Origin: an uncultured Verrucomicrobiae bacterium
Lineage (GTDB): Bacteria > Verrucomicrobiota > Verrucomicrobiia > Palsa-1439
Assembly (NCBI GenBank): GCA_963812605.1
Contig: CAWEWF010000001.1
Location: forward strand, 355,580-419,579
Length of the DNA: 64,000 nucleotides
Reading direction: 5' to 3'
A program made the position numbers and the translations under genes. The notes below the pieces were generated by a model. It was not told where the DNA came from. It saw only the letters and a list, made by a program, of their open reading frames with translations, and ran no database searches. This document shows positions 2,296 through 44,947 of this stretch, piece after piece; the first letter of the stretch is position 1; every line of letters begins with the position of its first letter.

Positions 2296-2685
2296 TCAAC
2301 TGCAAGTCTTCACGGTCGTGCGAAGGGCGCGCTCGATCGTATTGGCGAATTCCTGGAAATTGATCGGCTTGGTGTGGTAGGCAAAAGCCCCGAGACTCAG
2401 CGCTTTATCCGTCGTGCATTGTTCCGTGTGACCCGTGATGATGATGACCGGAACATCGGGAAACGCTTTTTTCGCCAGCGCCAAGAATTCCATGCCGTTG
2501 ATGCCGGGCATGGCGAGGTCTGTGATGATCACGTCGAAACGGTTCCTGGTGCCGGCCACATAATCCATGGCCGCCTGGGAATTGGAAGCTCCAGCCACCA
2601 CATAACCAAAGTGGTTCAGCAACTTGGACAGCGACGCCAAAACCTCAATGTCGTCGTCCACGAGCAGGATCGTAGGGCTTGCCAT
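2296..2685 (-). CDS. Response regulator, receiver domain only (CheY-like)
   Basis: LLVDDD...DVIITDLAMPGINGMEF...KP pattern; 129 aa; no output domain. Confidence 0.75.
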   Translation of the reverse strand: MASPTILLVDDDIEVLASLSKLLNHFGYVVAGASNSQAAMDYVAGTRNRFDVIITDLAMPGINGMEFLALAKKAFPDVPVIIITGHTEQCTTDKALSLGAFAYHTKPINFQEFANTIERALRTTVKTCS

Positions 2686-2795: not shown

Positions 2796-4970
2796 TTATT
2801 TCTCCGTCACTTCGTACCAAAGCGTCTTGTGTTCCGGACCGATGACAAGAACGGCGTGGCCACCTTCATCCGGCTCCAGGGAAAGTGGCTCCTTGTGTTC
2901 TCCGCGCTCGTCGAGCGCCCAGCCCTTTGCTTTTTTCGCGGACAATGGCATGGTGATACGGGCTGGGATTCCCTCGATCAACGACGGGGCCTTGCCCCAG
3001 TTGCGGCCAACGCTGGAATGCTCGGCGTTTTTCCACTGCATCGCGGTATTCTCGGCGGAGCCCGTTGCGGTCACCAACCAACAACCCGATTGCAACTCAG
3101 TGACGGTGATTGCGCACCATCCGTTCTGGCGCGTGGCGCCCGGCTCGATTACCGTGCCGTCGAGATCGAACCGTTTCCCTCCGCCGAAGCCGATGACCGC
3201 CTTGCTCTTGGCCGTGTTCACCGTGATGACTCCGCAACCTTTCTCGCTTGCGTCCCACACGAGTTCGCCGGTGTCCGAGACAAAGCGGCTGGAGGTGAGC
3301 AAGTCTTTCCGGATCCCAGGCGAGGAAACCCTTCCGGTAACATCGATTGCGACGCGATGGACCAACGGTGTTTCCCGCGGCACGCCGAGTAGGCTGGCAT
3401 CGATCAATCCCCAGGCGTGGGCACGCCGCAAGAGATCCGCGTCGCGTTCTCCATCAAGCGCAACGACAACCTGCTCCTGGGCGGGGCGCACATCGCCGCG
3501 CACGAACATCGCCATGGCGGGAACCAAGGTGGCCATCTTCGTCGGATGCTGGTCGATGTCAAAGAAGCTCGTGATGTGTTGCGTGTCCCAGTCATCATGG
3601 CGATGGGAATAGGCGAACGCGTAGATGGCATCCCAGTCCTGCAAAGCGGCGTACGCGGCGAGCAACAGGAAGCCTTCACTGCCATAGGTGTTCGGTGCGG
3701 GATGATTGTACTCCGTGACGCAGTGCGGTTTGCCAAGCACGCGATGCAGCGCCAGTGTGGGAAGCGTGCCGCCGCGTTCATTGACCATCGTGACATTCGG
3801 CACGAGCCAGTTTTCATCGTCCCACGATTTACCCGGAAACTGTGGATGTTGCCAGTAGGCATGCGTGTCCACCGCGTCGAACCTCGCCATCAGGTCGGGT
3901 GTGCTGCACCCGACGATGGTGCCCATCACCACAGCGTGGACACGCAGTTCATTCTTTAGAAAATCATCCATCGATTGCCAGTAATGATCTTCCGTTTCCG
4001 AAAGAAATCGCATCCAATCCCGCTGCGCCTCGGCGGTGCATTTGTCCCACTGCGCCTTCGTGAACATGGGCAGCGTTCCGTCCTCGATATGTTCCGCATC
4101 GGCCAACCCGGCCACGCTGTTGGGCAACTCGCTCTTTGCGCCCCACACGGCGCGAAGTTTTTCCGTGGAGCGGTAGCGGTCGCGCAGCCACTCGTTCCAC
4201 TGGCGCCGCAAGTCGCGCGCAAAAACTTCCGGCAAACCGTCAAGTTGTCCACCCAGCCACGAGTGCGCCAACCCATTCTCATTGTTGATCTCGATGAAAG
4301 CGACGGCCGGGTCTTCGGTGTAGGCCAGGCCGGTCACGACGTTACGATGAGTCAAAAGCTTGCGCGCGTACTCTTTCTGGAGTTCGAGCAGCGGGGCGTA
4401 AAAGAAGCCGACACTGGCCCGTTCTTTCAACTCCAGTTTTTCGATCTCGATGGGCAGCCCGTCCGCGGCGTTGAAGGGACGCAACACGAGCAGGTTAAGG
4501 TTCGCGTAAATCCCGTGGCGCTTCAGCGCGGCGATGAAATAATCGAGACGGTCCAAGGCTTCCGGATCGAGTTGGCGTGTCGATTTGTCGTCGCGGGCAC
4601 GAATGCCGCCGGGGAACGGCTGCATGTCCATGTGATGGAACCGCACGACATTGATGCCGAATTTCGCCAGGCGCGCGGCGATCTTCTCGGCGTCATCGTG
4701 CCTTGGGAAATTCGCGCCAAAGCAGAAGTTTACGCCAAAGAAACGGATCCGCTGACGGCCCGCGTACAGATGACCGTCTTTCTCCGCATGGATGAAGCCG
4801 CGCTTTCCGGCAGGCGCTTCGAGCCAGCCGCTCAAGTCTGTCAGACTCGGCGTGGCGTCGTTCCACGGCAGGACAAACGGGAACACGGAAGCATCTTCCT
4901 GCGCCTTGCCGCTCGGAGTTGAGATGGACCCAAGAAAGAACGCAACGCCAAGGAGCAGGATTCGTCTCAT
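2796..4970 (-). CDS. Secreted clan GH-A (GH5-like) glycoside hydrolase, large multidomain
   Basis: Signal peptide MRRILLLGVAFFLGS from the internal ATG at 4970. TIM-barrel acid/base motif IEINNEN and nucleophile motif VTEYNHP. About 720 aa mature protein. Confidence 0.55.
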   Translation of the reverse strand: MRRILLLGVAFFLGSISTPSGKAQEDASVFPFVLPWNDATPSLTDLSGWLEAPAGKRGFIHAEKDGHLYAGRQRIRFFGVNFCFGANFPRHDDAEKIAARLAKFGINVVRFHHMDMQPFPGGIRARDDKSTRQLDPEALDRLDYFIAALKRHGIYANLNLLVLRPFNAADGLPIEIEKLELKERASVGFFYAPLLELQKEYARKLLTHRNVVTGLAYTEDPAVAFIEINNENGLAHSWLGGQLDGLPEVFARDLRRQWNEWLRDRYRSTEKLRAVWGAKSELPNSVAGLADAEHIEDGTLPMFTKAQWDKCTAEAQRDWMRFLSETEDHYWQSMDDFLKNELRVHAVVMGTIVGCSTPDLMARFDAVDTHAYWQHPQFPGKSWDDENWLVPNVTMVNERGGTLPTLALHRVLGKPHCVTEYNHPAPNTYGSEGFLLLAAYAALQDWDAIYAFAYSHRHDDWDTQHITSFFDIDQHPTKMATLVPAMAMFVRGDVRPAQEQVVVALDGERDADLLRRAHAWGLIDASLLGVPRETPLVHRVAIDVTGRVSSPGIRKDLLTSSRFVSDTGELVWDASEKGCGVITVNTAKSKAVIGFGGGKRFDLDGTVIEPGATRQNGWCAITVTELQSGCWLVTATGSAENTAMQWKNAEHSSVGRNWGKAPSLIEGIPARITMPLSAKKAKGWALDERGEHKEPLSLEPDEGGHAVLVIGPEHKTLWYEVTEK

Positions 4971-4980
4971 CGCGCTGTGT

Positions 4981-6354
4981 TCAACGTTCCACAAGAAATG
5001 CCAAATCGTCCTGCCGGTTTCCGGCTCCGTCACCCTTTTCACCGATGCTGTATACGACGTACCCGGGCGCGAGTTTCTTGTAGCGCAGCGGTTGGCCGTC
5101 GAACGGATCGGTCGGCACCCCGCTGCTGCCGAACGGCGTAAGTTCCGCGACGGTCTGGGGCAGTTGATGATCATGGGAAACGCGGAAGCGCTCGATGGCG
5201 ATGGCGATCCGCGCGGACCGGAGGCGGGCGGTGACGGCCGCGTCTTTCAAGATGACGCGGGAGCCATTCATGCCGCGCAACCATCCGCGGGAGAATGCGT
5301 GCAACCCATCCTGTTGTTCGAGAGACTGACGCAACACCTGCGCGGCGGCGATTCTCTCCGGAAAGTCTGTCTGGGCGGTTTGAATATAACGATCCATCGA
5401 CTGTAAATAATTCAATTCGTCCCACTGGAGAAATCCGCAGGAGTCGTACAAATATTGGGGCGAACTGAAAAAAATGGCTACATTTAGAAAAAGTCTTTGA
5501 CTGAGTGGGCGCGACCGGCCAGCCGGAAGAGCGATCAGGTCCGTGGTATCCCGCATCATATTAAAACCCTGGATGCCAATGCACCGTTGGCCGATGAACG
5601 CGCGGGCCAGCCCACGTTGGTCGTCGGCTTTCTCCAGAGCGACGGCAAGGGCGGCCAACTGCTCGTCCGTCAGGCGGGTCTTATTCAGGATGTGCTGGAG
5701 ACTGCTGACCGCGATTTTTTGGGTCTCGATCCGCGCCAGATGGGAACGCACCAGCGGTTCTTTCGCGAGCGACCGCGACAAGGCGAACGATGACTCGACG
5801 GAGAGGATCGCCAACTCCGGGCTGGTGTCCTCGGCGTGATTGGCGGCATCGGTCTGCAACAGGTAGGCGCTGCGAACGGCATTCGCCAGATGCGGATAGG
5901 GCATGATCGAAAGTTTGCCCAAATTGATCGGGAACCGGCTTCGCGGAATGTTGGAAGCCTGATGCAACAAGGCCAGCGCCTCAATGTTCCCGCTAAGGTA
6001 ACCCGCCATCGTTTGTTTGCCCGGGTCTGCTGATGACCCGTCCGCCGGTGGAAGATCGATGGATTTGTCATCCAACAAGAGGGATGGATTGAATTGGCCG
6101 GACAGACTTGCGAACGCCTTGCCGAAAACCAGCGCACTATTCTCTTCCACCGGAACCCGCGGGTACCACCGATCCAGCTCCGCCAGTGTGACGGGGTAAT
6201 TGCGCTCGTGGATGGCGGCCATTTCGGAGGCAAGAAGACGATTGAGAATCAATCGCCAGGCGATGAACAAGACAGAGAAAGCCAGTGCGACAAGAGAGAG
6301 GCGCCGCCGCCAGTACTTCCACCGCGAACCAGGTAACCGAATGCCTGCGCTCAC
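4981..6354 (-). CDS. Membrane-anchored protein of unknown function with a pseudopilin (GspG)-like C-terminal motif; paralog A
   Basis: N-terminal TM helix (LSLVALAFSVLFIAW). Conserved motif YPVTLAELDRWYPRVP. C-terminus DPFDGQPLRYKKLAPGYVVYSIGEKGDGAGN resembles the DPWG...Y.Y...SLG.DG..GG tail of type II secretion pseudopilins. 11 bp upstream of the GH5-like gene. Paralog of 11681-13012. Confidence 0.6.
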   Translation of the reverse strand: MSAGIRLPGSRWKYWRRRLSLVALAFSVLFIAWRLILNRLLASEMAAIHERNYPVTLAELDRWYPRVPVEENSALVFGKAFASLSGQFNPSLLLDDKSIDLPPADGSSADPGKQTMAGYLSGNIEALALLHQASNIPRSRFPINLGKLSIMPYPHLANAVRSAYLLQTDAANHAEDTSPELAILSVESSFALSRSLAKEPLVRSHLARIETQKIAVSSLQHILNKTRLTDEQLAALAVALEKADDQRGLARAFIGQRCIGIQGFNMMRDTTDLIALPAGRSRPLSQRLFLNVAIFFSSPQYLYDSCGFLQWDELNYLQSMDRYIQTAQTDFPERIAAAQVLRQSLEQQDGLHAFSRGWLRGMNGSRVILKDAAVTARLRSARIAIAIERFRVSHDHQLPQTVAELTPFGSSGVPTDPFDGQPLRYKKLAPGYVVYSIGEKGDGAGNRQDDLAFLVER

Positions 6355-6373: not shown

Positions 6374-6766
6374 TTAGAGCCAAACGAAAGCCTCATCATC
6401 GGGGATTGGAGCGGGAGGGTTGCGATCGGACTCGGTGGCACTCGTCATTGATGCCACGGTCGACGCAACAACGGCATCCACAGCCCCATCAAATTTAGTC
6501 GGTGGATTCTTCGGTTTGGGGGGCCGGGTTGGCGATACGGATGGGACCGGGCTGGCGCCCAGCACTTGTACCGCTGGGCCTTGTTCAAATCCGAGCTCAT
6601 GCGCCAGGATGCCGAGCAACCGGCGGGTCGGCCCGCTGGGATTACGGCGCTGGTGTTCGAGGTATTTCACCTGTTTGATCGAGACACCAAGCCACAGAGC
6701 AAATTGGGCCTGGGTCATGCTGGCATGCTTGCGCAAAGCCAGAATACGGCTTGCTCCCCATTCCAT
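6374..6766 (-). CDS. XRE-family HTH transcriptional regulator with Pro-rich C-terminal tail
   Basis: MTQAQFALWLGVSIKQVKYLEHQRRNP is a typical HTH_XRE pattern. Ends 19 bp upstream of paralog A. Confidence 0.6.
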   Translation of the reverse strand: MEWGASRILALRKHASMTQAQFALWLGVSIKQVKYLEHQRRNPSGPTRRLLGILAHELGFEQGPAVQVLGASPVPSVSPTRPPKPKNPPTKFDGAVDAVVASTVASMTSATESDRNPPAPIPDDEAFVWL

Positions 6767-6868: not shown

Positions 6869-8365
6869 TTAAGCGCTGATCCCGGCCATCAAACGGAGCA
6901 GGGTTTCCTGGCTGGCCTGCGCGCGCGAAACCTCGCCAACCAAACGTCCATTGCGCAAGACCAAAATGCGCGTGGAGAGGTTGATCACCTCGGGAAGCTC
7001 GCTGGAAATCAGGAGCACGCCGTTGCCTTTATTCGCAAGTTCATCGATGAGACCGTGGATTTCTGCCTTGGCGCCCACGTCCACGCCGCGTGTGGGTTCG
7101 TCGACGATCAACACGTGACAATCCGCCGCCAGCCATTTCCCGAGGACGACTTTTTGCTGGTTGCCACCCGATAATCCCGCGACCACTGATTCGGTGCTGG
7201 GAGCCCTCACATGAAGGAGGTCGAAGTATTTTTGGGCGATCCGCCGTTCCGCCCCGAAGCGCACCCAGCCCAGGCCCGCGAACCTCTCCAGGGTGGGCAG
7301 AGTTGTATTTTCCCGCGCGTTCATCATCATCACCAAGCCGTGCCGTTTGCGGTCTTCGGGAACCATTCCAATATGATGGCGCATGGCAACCGACGGCTGG
7401 CGCAACGGCATCGGCTTGCCGCGCACGCGGACATGACCGGTCGCCAACCGGTCGAGTCCAAACAACGCCTCGGCAATCTCCGTGCGTCCGGCTCCCACCA
7501 ATCCGGCGAAACCAAGCACCTCGCCGGCGCGCAATTGGAAAGAGATATTCTCGAACTTGCCGGGGCTGGAGAGATCCTCCACGCGCAGCAACTCTTCGCC
7601 AGGCTCAGCCTGAAGATGGCGGGAGAAATATGCCTCCAGCGTGCGACCGATCATCATCTGTACCAAGCTGTTACGGTCGAGTTCCGCTGCGGATTTTGTC
7701 GCCACGTGCTGGCCGTCGCGCAATACGGTGATCGTATCGCAGAGATGATAGATCTCCTCCAGTCGATGCGATACGTAAATCGCGGTCACGCCTTGCGCCT
7801 GCAACCGCTTGATCAATTGGAAGAGATGGTCGCTCTCGATCTGTGACAGGCTGCTCGTTGGTTCGTCGAAGATCAGGATGCGCGCGCCATGCGAGACCGC
7901 TGCGGCGATCTGGACCAGTTGCTGTTGGCTGACCGGCAACGCGCCCACAAGTTTTGTCGGATCGATCTTCGCCTGGATGGCGGTCAGGTATTCCCTGGCT
8001 CGGCGCAACATTTCACGGCGGGAAACGAATGTCGCTCGCGCGGGCAGATGGCCCAGGCAGAGGTTTTCCGCGACGGTAAGGTTTTCACAGAAAGCCAGTT
8101 CCTGATGCACGATGCCGATGCCGGCGGCCATCGCATCGCTGGGACTTCCGAACCGCGCCGTCTTGCCGTCGACGAGCAATTCGCCTTCATCGGGCCTGTA
8201 GATACCCGCCAGGATTTTGCCCAGCGTGCTTTTGCCGGCGCCATTCTCGCCGCAGAGCGCGTGGCACGAGCCCGGCGCAACGTCGAAGCCCACGTTCCGC
8301 AACGCCTGTACGCCGGGAAAGCGCTTGCCGATCCCGCGAAATTGAATGATCGGATTCTCAGCCAT
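6869..8365 (-). CDS. Sugar ABC transporter ATP-binding protein (two fused ABC domains, RbsA/MglA-like)
   Basis: Two Walker A motifs (GENGAGKST; second domain), LSGGNQQK signature; 498 aa. Confidence 0.85.
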   Translation of the reverse strand: MAENPIIQFRGIGKRFPGVQALRNVGFDVAPGSCHALCGENGAGKSTLGKILAGIYRPDEGELLVDGKTARFGSPSDAMAAGIGIVHQELAFCENLTVAENLCLGHLPARATFVSRREMLRRAREYLTAIQAKIDPTKLVGALPVSQQQLVQIAAAVSHGARILIFDEPTSSLSQIESDHLFQLIKRLQAQGVTAIYVSHRLEEIYHLCDTITVLRDGQHVATKSAAELDRNSLVQMMIGRTLEAYFSRHLQAEPGEELLRVEDLSSPGKFENISFQLRAGEVLGFAGLVGAGRTEIAEALFGLDRLATGHVRVRGKPMPLRQPSVAMRHHIGMVPEDRKRHGLVMMMNARENTTLPTLERFAGLGWVRFGAERRIAQKYFDLLHVRAPSTESVVAGLSGGNQQKVVLGKWLAADCHVLIVDEPTRGVDVGAKAEIHGLIDELANKGNGVLLISSELPEVINLSTRILVLRNGRLVGEVSRAQASQETLLRLMAGISA

Positions 8366-8371
8366 CAGGTG

Positions 8372-9370
8372 TCAGGGCAGCTTCAGGTATTCCTCGGGCA
8401 CATCCGTAAAGCCCCACGCCTTGAGCTGGCGCGCCCAGGTCCCAAGGTTTTCCTTGGAGACGCGCACGAGTTCCATGCGGGTGATCGCCGGGACATCCTT
8501 CTTGAGATAGACCTTGTCGATGACCTTCTCGACCGACACGTGACCCCACATATAGGTGGGCTGCGCGAGTAGTACCGGCGCGATCCCCTTTTCAACGTAG
8601 GGTAATTCGGCCGGCAGCGCATCGACTGCAACCACTTTCACTTTGGCGGGATCGAGATCGGTCAGCAGGCTCTTCGTGAACAACGGCCAGCCGCCGATCA
8701 TCGCCCAGCCCGTGATATCGGGATAAGCGTTCATCACGCGTACGACTTCGGCCGCGCCGTCCTGGGGTGTTTCGATATGGTAAAAAGTGCCGACGATGGT
8801 GATGTCGGGATACTTCGTCGCTTCTTTCTTCACGCCGTCGGCACGCTTGCGCAGGTTCGGCGCGTTCTGGTTGCCGGCCAGGATGGCGACCTTGCCTTTC
8901 CCTCCGAGTTGCTTGGCCAGTTCCGACATAACTTGTTCGCCGCTCGCTACGTCGTCCACGCCATAAAACGCAAAGCGCTTCGATTGCGGCGCATCGCTAT
9001 CAAAGGTCATCACGGGCACGCCGCGCGCCGCCGCGTCGTTGATCGCACCGGTGAGTTTTGCCGCGTCGGAACAGGAAACCACGATGGCGTCATCGCCTTC
9101 GTTGACCGCCTCGGCGATCCGCTGGGCTTGTACCTGCGCATCTTCCGTCGGCGGCGTGCGCCAATCGATCACGATGTCGATATTGTACTTGGCGGACAGT
9201 TCCTTCGCCGCGGCTTCCGCGCCGGTGCGGGCGGAGAGGAACACGGGGTTGGTGGAGCTTTTCGCGATGAGCGCGATTTTGATGGTTTTCTTTGCCTGCG
9301 CGAAGCTGCTGGCGACCGCCAGCCCTGCCACGCAACCGAACACGATAAATGCTTTGCCGAGTCTGTTCAT
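8372..9370 (-). CDS. Sugar ABC transporter periplasmic substrate-binding protein (RbsB-like)
   Basis: Signal peptide followed by a periplasmic-binding-protein fold pattern (KIALIAKSSTNPVF...); 332 aa. Confidence 0.8.
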   Translation of the reverse strand: MNRLGKAFIVFGCVAGLAVASSFAQAKKTIKIALIAKSSTNPVFLSARTGAEAAAKELSAKYNIDIVIDWRTPPTEDAQVQAQRIAEAVNEGDDAIVVSCSDAAKLTGAINDAAARGVPVMTFDSDAPQSKRFAFYGVDDVASGEQVMSELAKQLGGKGKVAILAGNQNAPNLRKRADGVKKEATKYPDITIVGTFYHIETPQDGAAEVVRVMNAYPDITGWAMIGGWPLFTKSLLTDLDPAKVKVVAVDALPAELPYVEKGIAPVLLAQPTYMWGHVSVEKVIDKVYLKKDVPAITRMELVRVSKENLGTWARQLKAWGFTDVPEEYLKLP

Positions 9371-9385
9371 GATTTCCTCCGGTTC

Positions 9386-10414
9386 CTATCCTTTGGTTAG
9401 TCGTTTCGCCGTCAACCGCGCATTGAGTTGATCGAGCACCACCGCGATCACGATCGCGCTGCCGATGATGATCCATTCGTAGTTTTGGTCGAAATGCAAT
9501 TGGCGGATCGCCTGCCGAATCAGCACGATGAGCACCGCCCCCAGCATGGCGTTGATCGCGCTGCCTTTGCCGCCGCTCAGGCTCGCGCCACCGACCACCG
9601 CCGCCGCGATCACATATAACTCGTAGCCCGTCGCGTCCCCGCACGTCGCCGAGCCATAATAACTGATCCCCACAAACGCCGCGATGCCGGCGGTCAATCC
9701 CGACAACGCGTACACGCCGATCAGGATTCTTCCCAACCGCAACCCCGAGTAACGGCTGGCTTCCGCATTGCCGCCAATCGCGTAGATGTGCCGCCCCATC
9801 ACCGTTCGCGAGAGATAAATCGCGCCGAGCGCCGTGACCGCGAGCATCACCAGCATCGGCACGGGATAAAGGGCCGAACTCGAGCCGAGGGTCGTCTTGA
9901 CCACGCTGGTCAGCGCGTCGGGCACGAGGATGCTTTCCGCCTTGCTCGTGACAAACGCAATGCCGCGAAACACCCACATCATCCCCAGCGTAATGATGAA
10001 TGGATGCACCCGCAGCCCGACCACCATCACGCCGTTGGCCAGCCCGCACAGCAGGCCGATTCCCAGGCACAGCGTCAATGCCGCCAGCACCGTCACAAAA
10101 GGGTTGGAGAATTGCCACGACCGCAACGCCAGCGCCATCGTGGTCCCCGCCAGCGCGTACGTCGAGCCCACGGACAGATCGACGCCGCCCGAGATGATCA
10201 CCATCGTCGCCCCGACCGCCATGATCGCGAAAAAACTCGCGTCCGTGGCCGTCTGCGTGAGCGTGTAGAAGTTGAGGAAGTTGTTGACCGACCGGCCCGT
10301 CATGCGGTCCACGTGCGAACCCGCAAAAACGGTGAGCACGGCCCCCAACAGCAGGATCACCAGGATCAAACCGGACTGCTGGGCATTGAAAACGCGGCGA
10401 ATCGTCGGGTGCAT
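9386..10414 (-). CDS. Sugar ABC transporter permease (RbsC-like)
   Basis: Multiple TM segments. Likely start is the internal ATG at 10414 (MHPTIRRVFN), giving about 343 aa. Minus-strand operon order is permease, SBP, ATPase. Confidence 0.8.
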   Translation of the reverse strand: MHPTIRRVFNAQQSGLILVILLLGAVLTVFAGSHVDRMTGRSVNNFLNFYTLTQTATDASFFAIMAVGATMVIISGGVDLSVGSTYALAGTTMALALRSWQFSNPFVTVLAALTLCLGIGLLCGLANGVMVVGLRVHPFIITLGMMWVFRGIAFVTSKAESILVPDALTSVVKTTLGSSSALYPVPMLVMLAVTALGAIYLSRTVMGRHIYAIGGNAEASRYSGLRLGRILIGVYALSGLTAGIAAFVGISYYGSATCGDATGYELYVIAAAVVGGASLSGGKGSAINAMLGAVLIVLIRQAIRQLHFDQNYEWIIIGSAIVIAVVLDQLNARLTAKRLTKG

Positions 10415-10675
10415 GAAAATCCGCCGCCAGATTAGCGGCCAAAGCGCAAATTGCAAGCATTCGGCTAGCTCCTCCGGCTCGCCTGAATGTGGGAGGGACT
10501 CACCGTCGCGACTCCCATCCGCGTCCTCCCGGTCCGTCATGCTGAGTCCCGTCATGCGACGGGATCCCGCAGGATTGCGGGACTTGTCGAGGCATCTCCC
10601 ACGACACCAACAACCCTTCTAACAACCAGAGCACCCCTGCGAACCCGACTACTATACACTTTATAGCGTCAGGTA

Positions 10676-10699
10676 GCTTCGTTTCTCTGGAAACGAAGC
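10676..10699. promoter_or_regulatory. Perfect palindrome GCTTCGTTTC-tctg-GAAACGAAGC (10-bp arms); copy 1 of a repeated hairpin/operator-like motif
   Basis: Read directly from the sequence. Lies about 260 bp upstream of the permease start on the minus strand. Confidence 0.5.
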
Positions 10700-10738
10700 C
10701 ATTCTCACGAAAAATGCACCTCCTAGACCCCTCAAGAT

Positions 10739-10762
10739 GGGTTCGTTTTCGAAAACGAACCC
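10739..10762. promoter_or_regulatory. Perfect 24-nt palindrome GGGTTCGTTTTCGAAAACGAACCC; copy 2 of the same motif family
   Basis: Read directly. Followed by CCATTCAGAAAATGC, similar to the CCATTCTCACGAAAAATGC after copy 1. A degenerate third copy lies at about 10844-10866. Confidence 0.5.
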
Positions 10763-11294
10763 ATTCAGAAAATGCTACTGGAAGCGGTGCAACCTGCCGT
10801 AAATAAAAGTGATGCATCGAAAAATGTGCGTCAAATAAAATCGGGTTCGTTTCGCAGAAACACATGTTTTACGGCTTCGTATCCTCCCGCGATGGTTCCT
10901 GCACCCAAATGGGCAGCCTGCCGTAGTGGCGCGGGCGTCTCGCCCGTGTCCTTCCGCCTTCGAGTTGAACAGGCGTCCCGCCTGTATTTCCTTAACCGCC
11001 CATTTGCCACCCGCCGCTTGGCCTTCGTAGCCTTGTCAAAGCAGTCTCGCCGTGCTGCCTCCGAATTGTAGGGCTTGCCCCGATTTCGAGATCGGGGCGA
11101 GCGTCCCGCTTGCCGCTGTTAATCTTCCGTTCATAATCTCCGCGCTAATTCTAACGCCCGCCAGCACACCCTGTCCAGTAAAATTATCGATTAACGATAT
11201 ACAGGTGCGCATCAAGTTTTGCGCCTCGTGTTTCGGACGGAACGCTCGATCAGTGTGAGAAGATGAGGAAATAAAGAATCAAAAACCTGTCACC

Positions 11295-11363
11295 CTGAGC
11301 GAAGCGAAGTGTCTCTGTCGTTTGGGAATCCTCGGAACACCAGAGATTCTTCGCTTCGCTCAG
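11295..11363. other. Stem-loop: perfect 15-bp inverted repeat CTGAGCGAAGCGAAG / CTTCGCTTCGCTCAG with 39-nt loop
   Basis: Read directly. Intergenic; possible sRNA, terminator or REP-like element. Confidence 0.45.
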
Positions 11364-11504
11364 AATGACACCACCCTTTGAGTTGGCATTTGTAGAGGAA
11401 TTCTGTTCTCACAACCACCTTCCTAAAATCTGACTCGTGCACCCGACGCGTCAAATCACCAAATTGACATTGCATCGCGTTTTCAGCAGGGGCACAATTA
11501 CTGC

Positions 11505-11684
11505 ATGACGCAAAAGCAGTTGGTTCTGAATGCCATCAATGACTTGCCGGACGACGCCCCTCTTAGCGACATCGTCGAGCGCGTCGAGTTTTTGGCGGCG
11601 GTTCAGAAGGGATTGGATCAACTCGACCAGGGCCCTGGTATCCCGCACGACGAAGTCAAACGGCAACTGGCTTCATGGCTTTAG
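11505..11684 (+). CDS. Small 59-aa protein, DUF2281-like (antitoxin-like) candidate
   Basis: ATG...TAG ORF below the 60-aa track cutoff: MTQKQLVLNAINDLPDDAPLSDIVERVEFLAAVQKGLDQLDQGPGIPHDEVKRQLASWL. The LP...VEFL pattern resembles DUF2281. Its stop overlaps the stop of the convergent paralog B by 4 nt. Confidence 0.3.
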   Translation: MTQKQLVLNAINDLPDDAPLSDIVERVEFLAAVQKGLDQLDQGPGIPHDEVKRQLASWL

Positions 11685-13012
11685 CGTTCGACCGTGAAGG
11701 TGATGTCCTTCTTCTCATCCCCACCATCGTCCCGGCCATCCTCCCCGATGCTGTACACAACGTACCCTTTCGCCAGCTTCTTGTATCGCAATGGCTGGCC
11801 GTCAAATGGGTCGGCCGGAATGGCATCGAGGAACTTTGGTATGAGATTACCAAGCGAGTCCGGTAGCAGGCCGTTGGCGAGTCGGTACCGTTCGATCCCC
11901 AGGGAAATACAAACCGCGCGCAGCTGAGCGGTGTATCGAGCATCTCGTTTTGCCGAGCCGCCCAACAGATTGGCACCCATGCGAGTAAGTGGGCAGACTC
12001 TGAGATTCCCGGCCTTATGCTGTAGAGAATCGAACCGCTCGAAACGTTGCGGAAACGCTATGGTTGAACTGTTGATAAGACCATCCAAAAGGTCCAGGTC
12101 GGCGAGGTAGTCCAGATCCACCAGTCCAGACGGTCTGTAAATGATTCCGACCACGCGGTCGACGACGCCTATCTTTTCATCACTATATCGAGTCAGATCG
12201 GTGAGAGGCACTTTCCCCTTGCGGATTTCATCCCATTCTTCGTTGCCCCACGCTCTCTCGCCGATAAGAGCCTGAGTAAAGCTATTGGTGGTTTCGACAT
12301 CTCTAAAAGCAGCGCTTAACTCAGATAGCTGCGGGTCGGTGAAAGTCGCGCGACTCAATGCTTGTTCTAAACTGGAAATCGTGATCCCCAAGCAGGCGCT
12401 CTCCACAAGGTAGGAGATCAGCAAGGAGCGATCTCTCAATGATTCGGCCATGGCAAGCGAGGCCGTGACCGCTTCTGCGGCGCGGTGCGTATTCCCGCTC
12501 GCCGCCGCTAACAACGTCTCAAGATCGAGAAGACGGGCGCACCTTCTCACAGAAGTGAGCTGCTTCATCTGTGAACTGATCATCTTCTCAGGGGTGGATA
12601 AATCTGACGGATAACGACAGGATTTCATTTTTGCTGCTTCATGAAGGAAATTAAGGCTCTCTCGATTTGCGGCGAGATAGTCTGCAATTCCTTGCTTCAT
12701 CTCCGTCGGAAGCAGAGTGTTGCGCGCCGGCAGACGCGTAGATCCGACAATTGGCAGATTTGTGTCCGTCTCAGACTTGACGTAGTGCTGAAAAGCTTCC
12801 ATGTAGATGCTGGCGGCATTTTCGTCCAGCGGCACTTGCGGGTACCACTTATCGAATTCGGCGAGCGTGACCGGATAGCCTTGTTTGCGGATTTCATCCA
12901 GCTTGGATTCAACCATACGATGGAGCGTATAGCGGTAGATGGCGAAGATGGCGGCGAGCCCCAACACAATGAGCAGCACGAGGCGCAGTCGCCGGGCGGA
13001 CTTCGAAGCCAT
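11681..13012 (-). CDS. Membrane-anchored protein with pseudopilin-like C-terminal motif; paralog B
   Basis: Likely start MASKSARRLR at 13012. TM helix. Shares YPVTLAEFDKWYPQVP and C-terminal DPFDGQPLRYKKLAKGYVVYSIGEDGRDDGG with paralog A. The C-terminal coding sequence is also highly similar at nucleotide level. Confidence 0.6.
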   Translation of the reverse strand: MASKSARRLRLVLLIVLGLAAIFAIYRYTLHRMVESKLDEIRKQGYPVTLAEFDKWYPQVPLDENAASIYMEAFQHYVKSETDTNLPIVGSTRLPARNTLLPTEMKQGIADYLAANRESLNFLHEAAKMKSCRYPSDLSTPEKMISSQMKQLTSVRRCARLLDLETLLAAASGNTHRAAEAVTASLAMAESLRDRSLLISYLVESACLGITISSLEQALSRATFTDPQLSELSAAFRDVETTNSFTQALIGERAWGNEEWDEIRKGKVPLTDLTRYSDEKIGVVDRVVGIIYRPSGLVDLDYLADLDLLDGLINSSTIAFPQRFERFDSLQHKAGNLRVCPLTRMGANLLGGSAKRDARYTAQLRAVCISLGIERYRLANGLLPDSLGNLIPKFLDAIPADPFDGQPLRYKKLAKGYVVYSIGEDGRDDGGDEKKDITFTVER

Positions 13013-13077
13013 GCGCTGAGTGTAACATTTCCACCCGCGTTGACAACTCACGCTGGAGTTCGTAGCCTCGTGGCAAG

Positions 13078-14361
13078 ATGATTCGCCGATACAGCCGCGA
13101 GGCGATGCGCGAGATTTGGACGGACGAGAACAAGTTCTCCATCTGGCTCCGGATTGAGATTCTGGCGTGCGAGGCCCGCAAGATTCCCGCGAAAGACCTC
13201 GCGACCATCAAGCGGCGCGCGAAATTCAACGTCAAGCGCATCGACGAGATCGAGCGCACGACCAACCACGATCTCATCGCGTTTCTTACCAATGTCGCCG
13301 AACACGTCGGTCCGGCTTCGCGTCATATTCACGAAGGGCTCACATCGTCCGATGTTGTGGATACCGCCCTGGCAGTGCGAATGGTGCAATCAGCGGATAT
13401 TCTCATCGACGACGTGAGGAAACTGCGCTCCGTCGTCGCGAAGAAGGCGAAGAAATACAAATACGTTCCCATGATCGGGCGCACGCACGGCGTACACGCC
13501 GAACCGATTACATTCGGGCTCAAGATGGCGCTGATGTACGACGAGTTCGGTCGCGCGCTCGAACGGCTCGTGCTGGCCCGCGACATCGTTGCCGTCGGAA
13601 AAATCTCCGGCGCGGTCGGCACGTACGCGCACATGAACCCCAGGGTTGAGCAATACGTCTGCCGGAAGCTCGGCCTGCAAGCCGACAGGATTTCCACGCA
13701 GATCGTCCAGCGCGACCGCCACGCCGAATTCATGAGCGCGCTGGCGCTTGTCGGTTGCTCCATCGACCGCTGGGCGCTGGAGTTCCGTCACCTGCAGCGC
13801 ACGGAGGTGCTCGAAGCCGAGGAATTTTTCGCGGCGGGACAGAAGGGCAGCAGCGCCATGCCGCACAAGCGCAATCCCATCACCTGCGAGCGGCTCTCCG
13901 GTCTGGCGCGTGTGTTGCGCGGCAATGCGCTTGCCGCCATGGAAAACGTTGCCCTCTGGCACGAGCGCGACATTTCCCACAGCAGCGTCGAACGCATCAT
14001 CCTGCCCGATTCGACCACGTTGCTCGATTATATGCTCGTCACGCTCGCGGACGTGGTGGACAAGCTGCTCGTCTACCCCGCGCGCATGAAATCAAATCTC
14101 GAAGCGAGCAAGGGCTTGATCTATTCGCAAGGGATCCTGCTCGCCCTCACGCGCAAGGGGCTCGGTCGCGAGAAGGCGTATGCGCTCGTCCAGCGCAACG
14201 CGATGAAGACCTGGGCCGGCGCCGGGACGTTCAAGGAATTCCTGCTGAAAGACGCAGAAGTAATGCGATGGCTCACGAAGCGCGAGATCGAGGCCTTCTT
14301 CAATCTCGATGTTTACTTGCGTCAAGTAGACAACACGTTCCAAAAAGTCGGAATCAAATAA
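13078..14361 (+). CDS. purB: Adenylosuccinate lyase
   Basis: 427 aa; fumarate-lyase family signature GSSAMPHKRNP; full-length similarity pattern to PurB. Confidence 0.9.
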   Translation: MIRRYSREAMREIWTDENKFSIWLRIEILACEARKIPAKDLATIKRRAKFNVKRIDEIERTTNHDLIAFLTNVAEHVGPASRHIHEGLTSSDVVDTALAVRMVQSADILIDDVRKLRSVVAKKAKKYKYVPMIGRTHGVHAEPITFGLKMALMYDEFGRALERLVLARDIVAVGKISGAVGTYAHMNPRVEQYVCRKLGLQADRISTQIVQRDRHAEFMSALALVGCSIDRWALEFRHLQRTEVLEAEEFFAAGQKGSSAMPHKRNPITCERLSGLARVLRGNALAAMENVALWHERDISHSSVERIILPDSTTLLDYMLVTLADVVDKLLVYPARMKSNLEASKGLIYSQGILLALTRKGLGREKAYALVQRNAMKTWAGAGTFKEFLLKDAEVMRWLTKREIEAFFNLDVYLRQVDNTFQKVGIK

Positions 14362-41941: not shown

Positions 41942-42553
41942 ATGTTCAAGAAAGCGCCCGATGCTCAAAACCGAAAGCGAGATGAAACCTTTATGTGTCG
42001 TCCTTTAATCATTGAGAGACATGGCGTCGAGAAAGTGCGTGGACAAACCTGCAGTGGTGAAAAATCATTTGCAGACCTTTCGATTTACCGGGTGACGTTA
42101 CCTAACGAAGATTATTTGGACGTTGCTTATGCTATCTGGAAGAACGGCGAGCGTGACATTCATACGTATCGGGTTGAAAGCTCAATTCGGGCGCTGCGAA
42201 GACTGGATCATGGCTTACGCCTATCTATCGACCGATATTCGTCACGTATTTCGGCCGTCGAATTACGCCAAGCACGTCTGGTAGAAAACACGCCGAAACA
42301 GTGGTCAAGATGCTTCAAGGCTTCGCTGAAGGAATTGCGGGAAGGGGCAGGTCTAAATTGCGTAAAGGTGCTTCGGAGGGCAGGAGCCGAAGCAATCGGA
42401 ACGAAGCAGGATGTGTTCGAAGATAATGGAAAGCGGCGGGACTTTCTCTGCGCTACGTTCAAATCGGAGGCGCAATGGCCTCCAATTCTTGCTTACGTTG
42501 TTTCAAGGATACTGCCCTTGATGCGCGGATACCGACACAAAGATTATGGATAA
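41942..42553 (+). CDS. Hypothetical protein (203 aa), first gene of the low-GC island
   Basis: Intact ATG ORF with about 47% GC versus about 62% in the surrounding genome. No recognisable motif. Confidence 0.5.
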   Translation: MFKKAPDAQNRKRDETFMCRPLIIERHGVEKVRGQTCSGEKSFADLSIYRVTLPNEDYLDVAYAIWKNGERDIHTYRVESSIRALRRLDHGLRLSIDRYSSRISAVELRQARLVENTPKQWSRCFKASLKELREGAGLNCVKVLRRAGAEAIGTKQDVFEDNGKRRDFLCATFKSEAQWPPILAYVVSRILPLMRGYRHKDYG

Positions 42554-42580
42554 CGATAAAATACAGCAACAGGAGGGTCA

Positions 42581-42814
42581 ATGAAAGGCAGGCAAAAAGG
42601 ACGCCCGACGAAGTGGGTTCATGCCACGATCGAGCAGTCGATATTCGTGGATCGAGCTGGATTCACGTTTTCGGTGTGGCGTAAATGGAAGCGCAATAGA
42701 AGTATGGTGGGCACTTTGACCGTCAGCGTGGGTGGTCTCAGATGGTTGCCGGCGAGGGGGAAAGCCCGCCGTCGACGCACTTGGGGAGAAATTGCGGACT
42801 GGCTAAGTGAATAG
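42581..42814 (+). CDS. Small basic protein (77 aa), possible DNA-binding or regulatory component
   Basis: Arg/Lys/Trp-rich. Lies between the orphan ORF and the nucleases, on the same strand with short spacers. Confidence 0.3.
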   Translation: MKGRQKGRPTKWVHATIEQSIFVDRAGFTFSVWRKWKRNRSMVGTLTVSVGGLRWLPARGKARRRRTWGEIADWLSE

Positions 42815-42862
42815 CGGCAGCCCGCCCGCCGCTCGGTCCACGACAGTCGTCCATTAATTAAT

Positions 42863-43594
42863 TTGGAGAAAACTACGATGAGACAGCACGAAGCGGTCAT
42901 GGAGGTAATGCAGTCAAATGGCGGCTACGCTACCCTCGGCAGGCTTTACAAGGAGGCGCTGAAAGTTCCGGGTGCGGATTGGACGAAGACCAAGACTCCA
43001 TTTAAATCCATCAACCGTATTGTTCAGGACGAAAGATTCTTCTTCCGAATTCGCCCCGGTCTCTGGGCGCTTAAAGATTGGAAGGGCAAACTTCCAAAGG
43101 AAATCGCGAATATCACGGACCCAGAATACAGTCATGGGTACTTCCAAGGCCTGTTGGTTGAACTCGGTAACTTGGAGAAGTTCGAAACCTTCGTCACCGC
43201 GCGAGACCGCAATCGGACTTTCATGTCGAAGCCGCTCGGCACCGTGGCGACTCTAAGTGAGATGTACCTGTTCACATATGATGAAATCGTCAAACGGGCA
43301 AAGATGGTCGATGTTGTTTGGTTTAATGACCGTAAAATGCCGCATACGTTCTTTGAGGTTGAACACACATCGGACTTCGACGCATCGCTACTGAAGTTTT
43401 TGAAATTCCAAGATTTTCATTGTCAGTTTCGAATTGTGGCGTCGGAGAACAAAGAAAAAGAATACGCCGACAAGATCGCGCATTTTGCCTACAAGGCCAT
43501 TGCCAACCGCACAAAATTTACGAGCTACAAAGTACTCTCGGACTATCATTCAAAGGCTCACGAAGCCGCCGTCGCTAAACGCCTCTGGGACTAG
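42863..43594 (+). CDS. HARE-HTH (winged helix) plus PD-(D/E)xK-like nuclease; candidate restriction endonuclease
   Basis: N-terminus AVMEVMQSNGGYATLGRLYKEALKVPGADW...FFRIRPGLWAL matches the HARE-HTH pattern. C-terminal MVDVVWF...FFEVEHT suggests a D...(D/E)x(K/H) nuclease core. Convergent with the methyltransferase. Confidence 0.45.
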   Translation: MEKTTMRQHEAVMEVMQSNGGYATLGRLYKEALKVPGADWTKTKTPFKSINRIVQDERFFFRIRPGLWALKDWKGKLPKEIANITDPEYSHGYFQGLLVELGNLEKFETFVTARDRNRTFMSKPLGTVATLSEMYLFTYDEIVKRAKMVDVVWFNDRKMPHTFFEVEHTSDFDASLLKFLKFQDFHCQFRIVASENKEKEYADKIAHFAYKAIANRTKFTSYKVLSDYHSKAHEAAVAKRLWD

Positions 43595-44947
43595 CGCGTT
43601 TTCACTCTCAAAATCTCCGTCTCGCACCGCACGATGTGTGTCGTCTGGAGCTTTACTGACTGTGGAGTGTGCGTCCAGGCGGATTGGACGTCGGCGTCGA
43701 CGGTAGTATGGACGACGCTGCCGGTGCGGGCTTGGGCGCACGAGAGGAAGACGAATTTCGTCTCGTGGAAGATGCTCTCGGTCTGGATTTCCGGTACGTC
43801 CGCCATTTCTCTGATCCGATCCATAGATCCGCTGCCGGGATCAAGATCATTCTGCGAAAAAGTTGGTATCTGGGACGCAACGGAGAACGACAGAGACCCT
43901 TCGACAAGCTCAGGGTGACAACCTGGCGGTTGCTCCTGACGCACCACGGAGACCTCGACACGGACGCGGAATTCACGGAGCCAGATTTGTATGATTTCGC
44001 GGTCGGCGCGTTTGGCGGCAAGTTCAATGTGGCGGTAATCCAGTTCGATACCGATAAATAGTCGGTGTAGTTGCGCACAGGCGACAGCAGTTGTGCCGCT
44101 TCCGAGGAATGGGTCAAGAACGCAGTTGCTTTCGTTGGTGGCCGCAAGCACGCACCGTTCGATGAGTGCTACGGGCTTCTGTGTTGAATGTCTGCCAAAC
44201 GTTTTCTCCGCCTTGCCCGGCGCGCGCATAGTCCACACCGTTTTCATCTGTTGCCGGTTGACGGCTTTCATGGCTTTGTAGTTGAAGACGTGTTTGCTCT
44301 TGTCGGTTTTGGCGGCCCAGAGGATGGTTTCGGTGGAGTGGGTGAAGTAGCGGCACGAGAGGTTCGGCGGCGGGTTCGGTTTTTCCCAGGCGATGTCGTT
44401 GAGAATCTTGATGCCGAGCTGTTGCATCGCGTAGCCGACGCTGAAAATGACGTGGTGGGTGCCGGTGACCCAAATGGTGCCGTTGGGTTTGAGGACGCGC
44501 TGGCAGCGCTTCAGCCATTCGGTGTTGAATTCGTGGTTTAGCTCGGGACCGCGACTCTTGTCCCAAGTCGCCTTTGTCCACTTTGACCATCTTGCCCGCG
44601 TGACAGGTGATGCCGCCGTTGGAGAGGAAGTAGGGCGGGTCGGCGAACACCATGTCGAAACAGCCGTCGGGATGTTTCGCAGCGATGGCGTCGAGGACCT
44701 CAAGACAGTCGCCCTGGTAGAGGAAGATGCCGTGGGGGTCGTCGCGGTAGACGCAATTGAGCGGCGCGAGCGCGCCGGGTTCCATGACGACGCCGTCGAG
44801 GGGATTATTGGAGTCGGAGGTGATAAGGCGTTCGGATGGGGCGGGGTAATTGACGGGGCGGACAGGATGAACGGGCGGGACGCCCGTTCTACGCGGACGG
44901 ATGGCAGGCGAGACGCCTACCCCACTATTTTTTGGTTTCCTCGCCAC
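43591..44947 (-). CDS. Beta-class N4/N6 DNA methyltransferase (DPPY motif), split by a 1-nt frameshift near 44563
   Basis: Motif IV FDMVFADPPYF is in ORF 44114-44947. After KVDKGD the reading switches to the frame of ORF 43591-44703 (WDKSRGPE...). Motif I DPFLGSGTTAVAC lies near the C-terminus. The methyltransferase domain ends by about 43990, and the remaining open frame down to 43591 is of doubtful coding value. Confidence 0.75.

Follow-up and report, generated by a model that had tools for sequence, protein, structure and literature searches.

Two genes on the minus strand of the 64-kb window (that is, of the whole stretch of DNA analysed) encode proteins of the same architecture, namely an anchor, an all-alpha periplasmic domain and a GspG-like head. 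Paralogue A (4981..6354, minus strand) starts with GTG and codes for 457 aa, and paralogue B (11681..13051, minus strand) likewise starts with GTG and codes for 456 aa. An in-frame ATG of B at 13012 would give a protein of 443 aa, and this position is the end coordinate used in an earlier, sequence-only reading of the same DNA. The public gene call for A is a protein of 413 aa that begins at Met45 and loses the membrane helix; we favour the GTG start at 6354 because the 44 upstream codons are conserved among homologues of A, 256 of which were retrieved, all unnamed. Both ORFs exist on the minus strand and carry in their translations the motifs quoted in that reading, which had also proposed that the two are paralogous. 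BLASTP aligned A and B with 31% identity over 442 residues (E 5e-54); judged from the two sequences, the paralogy is real and chance is excluded.

As had been noted, purB (13078-14361) adjoins B, and B orthologues adjoin purB in 16 loci. The description of B as standing alone does not hold, since B lies on the same strand as, and upstream of, a sugar ABC transporter, which is in turn followed by the HTH gene and A. Pfam matches identify this transporter as a CUT2-type sugar ABC importer (6869..10555, minus strand) located between B and the HTH-A pair and consisting of a permease (9386-10555), a binding protein (8372-9370) and an ATPase (6869-8365). Convergent with B is a 59-aa ORF (11505..11684, plus strand). 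Its overlap with B was correctly seen and amounts to 4 nt at the B stop, but its proposed likeness to antitoxins is weak (PaaA2 at E 0.019, and a faint RelB3_C match).

A gene whose stop lies 20 nt upstream of A (6374..6766, minus strand) codes for an XRE-like HTH protein of 130 aa, which contains a linker of low complexity and has D(D/E)AFVW as a conserved C-terminal motif. The gene that begins 10 bases past the stop of A codes for a clan GH-A-like glycoside hydrolase of 724 aa (2796..4970, minus strand), which matched Glyco_hydro_42 at E 2.2e-4 and the GH5 mannanase 9m20 at E 0.001. A stand-alone CheY-like receiver of 129 aa (2296..2685, minus strand), a conserved downstream partner of A orthologues, and a GH28 gene (395-1150) complete the group. 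The placement of an XRE regulator and A upstream of GH5-like and GH28 genes is thus present in the window, but it is specific to this genome and no property of the family; the GH-A-like gene lies between A and the receiver in the window genome only, and is missing there in loci L003 and L005. A functional link to glycoside hydrolases was considered and rejected, as the surroundings of family members elsewhere show no recurrent gene of this kind. Scans for promoters and terminators yielded the number expected from shuffling, and Rfam detected no RNA family anywhere in the window.

Membrane anchor and helical domain

Members of the family share one layout, in which a short basic cytoplasmic N-terminus is followed by a signal-anchor helix, an all-alpha domain of ~300 residues and a C-terminal domain of ~95 residues. 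The full-length AF2 model of A (pLDDT 85.9, pTM 0.85) contains a continuous helix at residues 9-50 and further helices as far as residue 393; its strands span 424-427, 432-436 and 451-455. The signal-anchor helix (residues 19-41; 6232..6300, minus strand) is hydrophobic and has the basic stretch RWKYWRRR before it, and R34 and L37 inside the N-terminal helix are conserved in a 55-sequence alignment of the family. The earlier proposal that this helix anchors the protein in the membrane agrees with the modelled helix, the preceding basic residues and the two conserved positions. In 218 of 248 full-length relatives the maximum hydrophobic window falls inside the first 40 residues. The N-terminal helix of A lacks the small -3/-1 residues that form a cleavage site, which suggests a putative uncleaved anchor. 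An N-in topology is supported by the N-terminal fusions to GYF_2 and zinc-ribbon domains that occur among family members. The cytoplasmic part of A amounts to ~18 residues, which is little for signalling.

The motif YPVTLAELDRWYPRVP follows the membrane helix of A at residues 53-68 (6151..6198, minus strand), and the C-terminal end of the protein reads DPFDGQPLRYKKLAPGYVVYSIGEKGDGAGN...FLVER; the counterparts in B are YPVTLAEFDKWYPQVP and DPFDGQPLRYKKLAKGYVVYSIGEDGRDDGGDEKKDITFTVER, respectively. The post-membrane motif is conserved across the 55 aligned sequences, with P54, E59 and Y64 invariant and Y53, L57, L60 and W63 nearly so, and a motif of this type was found in 170 of 248 relatives. 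We also considered whether GYPVTLAEL in this region is a copy of the pseudopilin turn 'YPtT..GL..L', as would be found in a pseudopilin with an inserted domain. The two are in register, but the hhalign scores are not significant (E 0.26 with GspG, 0.052 with the C-terminal domain), and the candidate was dropped.

The all-helical periplasmic domain of A (residues 57-362; 5269..6186, minus strand) has ~14 helices according to the AF2 secondary structure. A Foldseek search of the PDB returned no relative of it (best E 0.18, TM below 0.2), and a PDB profile search with this region found nothing. The domain might be an enzyme, for instance an alpha/alpha-toroid lyase or hydrolase of polysaccharides or one that acts on peptidoglycan, with the pilin-like domain serving as an accessory carbohydrate-binding module. 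The conserved acidic and basic residues E59, E199, D312, R140 and R379 would fit this, as would the carbohydrate genes, the dcw cluster or the Mur ligase gene found near some members. But Pfam, NCBIfam and the PDB show no similarity to any enzyme, Foldseek TM-scores are at most 0.2 throughout, including for a PL17 lyase (E 1.6), and the neighbourhoods are heterogeneous, all of which makes an enzymatic role very improbable.

The C-terminal domain and its likeness to the GspG head

The C-terminal domain of A (residues 364-457; 4984..5265, minus strand) resembles the pseudopilin head according to AF2, hhalign and Foldseek, and in AF2 models it consists of an alpha1-C-like helix, a DPFDG loop and three strands. 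The corresponding GspG-like head of B (residues about 365-456; 11684..11959, minus strand) retains an intact YSIGEDGRDDGGDEKKDI loop. Among 55 homologues, D416 and P417 of this domain are invariant and F418, G420, R424, Y425, G431, Y432 and S436 nearly invariant. The soluble head of GspG/PulG/XcpT (PF08334, TIGR01710) can be aligned in register with residues about 364-457; both have the alpha1-C motif AL(D/E)xY(K/R)L, an xYP/LPxT turn, three strands and a DP(W/F)G loop. The Gly/Asp loop of B, YS(I/L)GxDGxxGGxDxxxDI, is matched to that of GspG, and it aligns without gaps with the XcpT (2kep) loop YSLGADGKEGGSDNDADI.

Profile comparisons point to the same family. B matched Pfam T2SSG at E 0.0028 (18.1 bits, cut-off 21, residues 407-451) and TIGR01710 at E 0.009 (16.1 bits, cut-off 88.85), A matched neither of the two models, and sub-threshold T2SSG matches were obtained for 23 of 55 members (best E 9.3e-5). 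GspG led the PDB sequence searches that were run with B and with the full-length and C-terminal profiles; it came at E 0.25-3.8 in the searches with single sequences and profiles. With hhalign, the C-terminal profile aligned with five GspG sequences in register, from the alpha1-C helix through the loop, at E 5.5e-5 to 8.6e-5 (probability 60-66%), while control regions of the same proteins gave E 0.16 and 0.26, 3-4 orders of magnitude worse. Foldseek TM-scores above 0.5 or at that level were confined to pilins, namely EHEC GspG (3g20_B, the best at 0.65), PilA1 (0.57) and gonococcal pilin (0.50), with E-values that exceed 1 for all these matches. The likeness to GspG is therefore measurable yet sub-threshold in every single test, and the three tests, each weak, are concordant.

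Such similarity could also be convergent or generic, the domain being a small alpha+beta cap with a Gly/Asp-rich loop on an ordinary periplasmic helical-repeat scaffold. All the similarity scores lie below threshold, A is without a Pfam match and its clade without the loop motif, and in the PDB search with the C-terminal profile BEL beta-trefoil chains score nearly as high as GspG. Against this, three independent methods agree on the family and on the register across about 60-110 residues, AIERYRL is matched to ALDMYKL in the alpha1-C motif and DPFDG to DPWGN, the control regions fall far behind, and only pilins pass the TM-score of 0.5. We consequently regard convergence as unlikely. We take the C-terminal domain to be a probable distant homologue of the soluble GspG head; in B and most of the family it also has the loop S-x-G-x-D-G-x-D-D-G-G, which corresponds to the calcium site of GspG.

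The sequence-only reading had compared the C-terminus of both proteins with the calcium-binding tail of pseudopilins. This applies to B and to most of the family but not to A, whose loop is degenerate (EKGDGAGN); the calcium-loop motif is kept in 126 of 163 relatives outside the A clade, compared with 20 of 85 A-clade members. The tail is moreover only one part of the likeness, which extends over the whole head with its alpha1-C helix, DPW/F-G loop and sheet. Run against related loci totalling ~0.5 Mb, the C-terminal profile picked up no canonical pseudopilins; its only matches were family members and a single divergent relative, which has a signal peptide (L029 1382-2560).

Family size, prepilin leaders and filament machinery

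A and B belong to a very large family of bitopic inner-membrane proteins, without a name, that is found in Verrucomicrobiota, Planctomycetota and Hydrogenedentota. A profile search gave 7,724 clusters (50% identity) at E<=1e-30 and 47,340 at E<=1e-3, and the top 150 matches all span profile positions of roughly 10-453. Pfam, NCBIfam and PDB searches aimed at a named family yielded sub-threshold GspG/T2SSG matches only. At E<=10, A and B had nothing but T2SSG-type matches in Pfam and NCBIfam, none above threshold and none to DUF1559, and 55 members examined at E<=1 had no match beyond T2SSG. Every homologue is named 'hypothetical protein' in its source, and literature searches found no description of such proteins. 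This agrees with the earlier view that no named family can be assigned, and the profile searches, which also looked for a well-characterised family of the DUF1559 or prepilin type, found none. Our assessment is that the family merits a Pfam or NCBIfam model.

The absence of a prepilin cleavage site from A and B had been pointed out before, and it extends to the whole family. A regular-expression scan of the first 120 residues detected the prepilin leader G|F(M)-T-L-x-E in none of 263 family proteins, the motif is absent from A, B and every reading frame of the 64-kb window, and the N_methyl Pfam model matched neither A nor B nor any of 55 members. Unlike GspG, the family lacks a class III signal peptide, Phe1/Glu5 and a hydrophobic alpha1-N; its head is preceded by a predicted uncleaved anchor and a 300-residue helical domain, making the proteins three times the size of GspG; it falls below the curated cut-offs and it is not encoded with gsp genes. 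As for the latter, the window contains no gspD/E/F, pil or prepilin genes, and there are no T2SS or pilus genes among the recurrent neighbours of family members in about 110 loci. The single exception is a true prepilin gene (L003 10329-10733) that is closely preceded by a third paralogue. A link to T2SS/T4P was accordingly rejected as a candidate. In a set of 72 diverse metagenomic loci, no neighbour recurred in more than 7.

These data bear on whether A and B could be atypical parts of a type IV filament or T2SS. The uncleaved N-terminal helix and the pilin-like head would then allow docking at either the tip or the base of a pseudopilus, where the protein would serve as cap, terminator or adaptor for cargo. 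Such a role would suit a head with a pilin fold and a GspG-type loop, the paralogue beside the L003 prepilin gene, and the tandem arrays of 3-4 paralogues with 4-nt overlaps that exist in the family and resemble minor-pseudopilin operons. Pilin-like modules with large extra domains have precedents, one of them being GspK, a large minor pseudopilin with an alpha-domain insertion in which the canonical Glu5 is missing. The other is the tip subunit CpaL of Caulobacter, which combines a pilin-like domain with vWA (bioRxiv 10.1101/2025.02.12.637803). GspK and CpaL are like the present family in having a membrane helix, a pilin-like module and a large extra domain, but they keep a prepilin-type N-terminus and sit in pilus or T2SS operons, neither of which the family does. 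Furthermore, the extra domain lies within or after the pilin fold in GspK and CpaL, whereas in the family it separates the anchor from the alpha1-C helix, and no sequence similarity of the family to either protein was detected. Dozens of pulG-like genes occur in verrucomicrobial polysaccharide clusters, as in Verruconatronum alginivorum, with 67 pulG-like genes, some of them inside alginate-utilisation clusters (PMC13274419). The expanded pulG-like and DUF1559 (H-X9-DG) families of PVC bacteria share with the present family the same phyla, a GspG-derived head and a massive expansion of paralogues. They do, however, bear the cleavage/methylation motif PF07963, which the present family never does in 263 sequences. 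With the leader and a Glu5-type N-terminus missing from all 263 relatives, filament genes missing from the window and not recurrent in about 110 loci, and the helical domain occupying the expected place of the polymerisation helix, we consider a filament part improbable.

We instead propose that A and B are membrane-tethered, non-polymerising pilin-fold adaptors or sensors. Support for the architecture is good; the mechanism is inferred, and we give the proposal as a whole about an even chance of being correct. Canonical pseudopilus stacking would not be expected, because the proteins would not be processed by prepilin peptidase and the alpha1-N polymerisation helix is replaced. The helical domain and the head may bind a periplasmic partner, and in B-type proteins the head is predicted from its motif to be stabilised by calcium. 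The adaptor and sensor roles are drawn from architecture and synteny alone. A wider version, which we think rather unlikely, is that the family forms a non-filamentous branch of the type IV filament superfamily, in which heads detached from the polymerisation helix, joined to a novel helical domain and held at the inner membrane, would act as docking proteins, decoys or regulators. They would do so for the hugely expanded set of pseudopilin-like proteins of PVC bacteria, or else for machinery of the envelope or of sugar uptake.

Almost all known pilin and pseudopilin folds belong to filament subunits, which depend on a dedicated leader peptide and peptidase. Here, a pseudopilin head is found without the leader, behind a 300-residue domain and a plain anchor, in at least 7,700 clusters. 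If the adaptor or sensor reading is correct, PVC bacteria, which already bear puzzlingly many pseudopilin-like genes, would have repurposed the pseudopilin head for a periplasmic role outside filaments, and there would be a handle (a profile, a domain boundary and testable partners) on a large set of unannotated envelope proteins of the Verrucomicrobiota that abound in soil and peat. If the non-filamentous branch is real, the pilin fold would gain thousands of proteins and a new kind of use.

The HTH-A-receiver cassette and the sugar importer

The gene order around A is conserved in its own clade. An orthologue of the 130-aa HTH protein lies directly upstream of the A orthologue in 17 of 17 non-redundant A-clade loci, and a receiver homologue lies downstream in 19 loci, but this synteny comes from one related lineage (A orthologues with 50-90% identity) and amounts to roughly one evolutionary observation. 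The HTH protein matched HTH_19, HTH_3 and HTH_31 at E 0.0014-0.0024 (18.5-18.9 bits, cut-offs 23-30); in 17 orthologues its N-terminal 70 residues are almost invariant, its linker is variable and its C-terminal peptide is conserved. Residues 6-117 of the 129-aa receiver matched PF00072 (Response_reg) at E 2.6e-26 (92.4 bits, cut-off 30.2), and the protein is without an output domain. The N-terminal peptide SRWKxWxRR of A is conserved inside the A clade.

This arrangement would suit A as a membrane sensor or anti-regulator that holds the XRE-like protein, through the D(D/E)AFVW tail of the latter and the basic N-terminus of A, until a periplasmic cue releases it, a reading which we regard as doubtful. 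That this release controls the hydrolase genes and those of the sugar importer, and that the CheY-like protein modulates it, seems to us similarly doubtful. The strictly conserved order of HTH, A and receiver genes with a 20-nt HTH-A gap, the conservation of the HTH protein's C-terminal peptide past a variable linker and of SRWKxWxRR in the A clade, and the adjacent sugar ABC importer are all consistent with such a system. But the cytoplasmic segment of A has only ~18 residues, the cassette is without a histidine kinase, the HTH assignment is sub-threshold, the synteny is from a single lineage, and most family members, B included, have no such partners.

Within the adaptor or sensor reading proposed above, the A clade may have lost the calcium-loop motif and become fixed in a cassette of XRE-like HTH, A and CheY-like receiver, in that order. 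A would probably be the envelope-facing part of a small regulatory module beside the sugar ABC importer, and the glycoside hydrolase genes next to A would be a later insertion in the window genome only. The importer is present in 12 related loci, and in L042 and L044 a family member lies directly after the importer ATPase gene.

Membership of A and B in a large unnamed family

The minus-strand ORFs A (4981..6354) and B (11681..13051) both start with GTG and encode 457 and 456 aa, respectively; the boundary of 13012 first assigned to B is an in-frame ATG that gives 443 aa. As the sequence-only reading had proposed, the two are paralogous (BLASTP E 5e-54, 31% identity over 442 residues), and both motifs it quoted are found in each protein and rank among the most conserved columns of a 55-homologue alignment. 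P54, E59, Y64, D416 and P417 are invariant in this alignment, and conservation is 90% or more at F418, G420, R424, Y425, G431, Y432 and S436. In the public record (locus L001, 10001-11242), A begins at Met45, which gives 413 aa and leaves out the conserved membrane helix. Because the 44 codons upstream of Met45, R34 and L37 included, are kept in homologues down to ~30% identity, GTG at 6354 is the better start. The A-B spacing differs by 5 nt between L001 and the window, and the two are therefore different assemblies of near-identical genomes.

A and B belong to a huge unnamed family. Searching 1.84 billion cluster representatives with a profile gave 47,340 matches at E<=1e-3, of which 29,674 reached E<=1e-10 and 7,724 reached E<=1e-30; the top 150 are 400-670 aa long and nearly all cover almost the entire profile. 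Genome matches fall in Verrucomicrobiota (mainly peat, bog and soil MAGs), Planctomycetota and Hydrogenedentota, with several copies per genome. All relatives are named 'hypothetical protein' at source, literature searches found no description of such proteins, and Pfam gives nothing above threshold for A and B; they are real and conserved but unannotated, and the earlier observation, including its core interpretation and its failure to assign a named family, was correct. Two records with typical family members, L026 and L034, are titled as Bifidobacteriaceae and Chitinophaga pinensis MAGs, yet these contigs are probably mis-binned or mislabelled because of their gene content (a verrucomicrobial-type end of the dcw cluster in L034).

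A GspG-like head without a prepilin leader

The C-terminus of both proteins had been likened to the calcium-binding tail of pseudopilins. B scores below threshold against both models of GspG, the major pseudopilin of type II secretion (T2SS): Pfam T2SSG, PF08334 (E 0.0028; 18.1 bits, cut-off 21) and TIGR01710 (E 0.009). T2SSG matches occur in 23 of the 55 aligned members, always at this position and with E down to 9.3e-5, and no other Pfam family recurs among them. GspG (XcpT, 2kep) leads the PDB sequence matches of B and of both profiles, full-length and C-terminal, and the B loop YSIGEDGRDDGGDEKKDI pairs with YSLGADGKEGGSDNDADI of XcpT in an ungapped alignment. Comparing the C-terminal sub-alignment with five GspG sequences (from E. 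coli K-12 and four PDB chains), hhalign gave E-values of 5.5e-5 to 8.6e-5 (probability 60-66%), with the register held from the alpha1-C helix (AIERYRL vs ALDMYKL) via DPFDG vs DPWGN to the Gly/Asp loop, whereas N-terminal and middle control regions of the same proteins gave E 0.26 and 0.16. A separate AlphaFold2 model of the last 100 residues (pLDDT 76.9) had no significant Foldseek E-value against the PDB; the only matches with TM >0.5 were EHEC GspG 3g20 (0.65/0.55, 112 columns), PilA1 (0.57) and gonococcal pilin (0.50). Since these individually sub-threshold tests agree, residues ~364-457 are probably homologous, if remotely, to the entire soluble head of a pseudopilin, of which the tail is just one part; a convergent or generic resemblance, which any one of these scores taken singly would allow, is unlikely in view of their agreement. 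The loop matching the GspG calcium site is intact in B and in 126 of 163 relatives outside the A clade (the A-type members), but degenerate in A (EKGDGAGN) and retained in 20 of 85 A-clade members, so that the likeness to a calcium-binding tail holds for B and most of the family, but not for A.

No prepilin cleavage/methylation motif was found in 263 family proteins or in any frame of the 64-kb window, in line with the leaderless N-terminus described earlier, and the N_methyl and DUF1559 models, an alternative raised at that stage, matched neither A, B nor the 55 aligned members. A simple signal-anchor, also proposed then, is supported by a basic N-terminus (RWKYWRRR) ahead of a hydrophobic stretch; in 218 of 248 full-length relatives, the 19-residue window of highest hydrophobicity begins at one of the first 40 residues. 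The full-length AlphaFold2 model of A, built on the 55-sequence alignment (mean pLDDT 85.9, pTM 0.85), predicts a single continuous helix at residues 9-50, ~14 helices up to residue 362, a 30-residue helix (364-393), a short helix (402-408) and three strands (424-427, 432-436 and 451-455). We infer that the anchor escapes cleavage by signal peptidase I, because small residues are missing at -3/-1, conserved residues lie in the helix and the helix is predicted to be continuous. Some members carry N-terminal extensions with GYF_2 (P0112, P0150 and P0196) or a double zinc ribbon (P0238), which is consistent with a cytoplasmic N-terminus and a periplasmic bulk; other extensions, of 200-600 residues, have no Pfam match (the 1044-aa protein at L039 4210-7344; P0252, 669 aa). 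Both kinds of extension could hint at cytoplasmic partners. The helical domain had no relative by PDB profile search or by Foldseek (best E 0.18, TM at most 0.2). That the protein is an enzyme seems very improbable.

Possible role and comparison with pilin-like proteins

The architecture is thus an anchor, a novel helical domain and a GspG-like head. Because the leader is missing and the helical domain stands in for the polymerisation helix, the head would not be processed by prepilin peptidase or stack into a pseudopilus in the normal way. Most likely, the protein would act as a pilin-fold module that is tethered to the membrane, does not polymerise and binds a partner in the periplasm. An atypical component of a filament machine, to which the head might point, is doubtful, as no T2SS or type IV pilus genes were seen in the window or among the recurrent neighbours at ~110 loci, save one prepilin gene in L003. 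There, a third paralogue (10961-12496, minus) is flanked by this true prepilin-type gene (10329-10733, minus; RGFTLVEIMIVVAIVGLLAAL...), the only prepilin neighbour seen, and by a gene for a secreted protein with many YGTT/GG-rich repeats (12527-13933, minus).

Relative to GspG, A and B would work at most like a detached pseudopilin head, failing its defining features of leader, curated score threshold and gsp linkage. In GspK, a large minor pilin, a pilin-like module is joined to a large additional domain. The same is true of CpaL (bioRxiv 10.1101/2025.02.12.637803); A and B share this combination, but GspK and CpaL retain a prepilin N-terminus and have their genes in pilus operons, whereas A and B do neither. 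PVC bacteria have also expanded pulG-like genes (67 in one verrucomicrobium, some inside alginate-utilisation clusters; PMC13274419), but these have the leader that the A/B family lacks.

Gene neighbourhoods in the window and elsewhere

Downstream of the divergent purB, the minus strand carries B, a gap of ~0.95 kb, genes for a sugar ABC permease (9386-10555), binding protein (8372-9370) and ATPase (6869-8365), an XRE-like HTH gene (6374-6766), A, and genes for a GH-A-like hydrolase (2796-4970), a CheY-like receiver (2296-2685), a Gfo/Idh/MocA oxidoreductase (1205-2227) and GH28 (395-1150). The HTH gene lies directly upstream of the A orthologue in all 17 non-redundant A-clade loci (50-90% identity), and a receiver gene downstream in 19 loci. 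B-type copies adjoin purB in 16 loci, the ABC importer sits between B and A in 12, and in genomes further removed a member comes immediately after the ATPase gene. All these loci come from one broad lineage and are therefore not independent observations. The glycoside hydrolase genes noted beside A are present, but the hydrolase separates A from the receiver gene in this genome only, and the carbohydrate context is incidental.

The HTH protein has 70 almost invariant N-terminal residues, then a linker that is variable, of low complexity and rich in Pro, and at its C-terminus a conserved D(D/E)AFVW, which looks like a short docking motif, possibly for the basic N-terminus of A or for the receiver. 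Fixed between the two genes, the A clade would probably serve a small regulatory module. We give about an even chance to the combined reading of a tethered, non-polymerising pilin-fold module with a periplasmic partner and an A clade working in regulation; within it, the architecture stands on much firmer ground than the mechanism. That A is a specific anti-regulator would suit the HTH linkage, but seems improbable.

Elsewhere the surroundings vary, and among 72 metagenomic loci each neighbour is shared by at most 7. Arrays of 3-4 paralogues in tandem, overlapping by 4 nt at their stop and start codons, adjoin ftsZ/ftsA convergently at the end of the dcw cluster (L033 554-4769, L034 1679-7338, L035 622-6332); in another lineage a member fused to GYF_2 takes this place, between carA and ftsZ (L046 8001-9572), and others lie between kdsB/pyrG and a Mur-ligase gene.

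Within the window, 10556-11504, from the permease gene to a small ORF beside B, lacks a convincing ORF and any Rfam match; the B orthologue of L024 lies just 31 nt from the next gene. This small ORF (59 aa, 11505-11684, plus strand) is convergent with B, overlaps its stop codon by 4 nt and is weakly similar to antitoxins (PaaA2 E 0.019; a faint match to RelB3_C on record), with no toxin partner evident. The remainder is housekeeping (purL, purF, purH, polX, kdpA and others). G+C dips to 0.515 at 42-44 kb against ~0.59 elsewhere; an N6/N4 DNA methylase gene (43591-44703, minus) adjoins this dip, and the region 42001-44703 may have been acquired as a small restriction-modification or mobile island.
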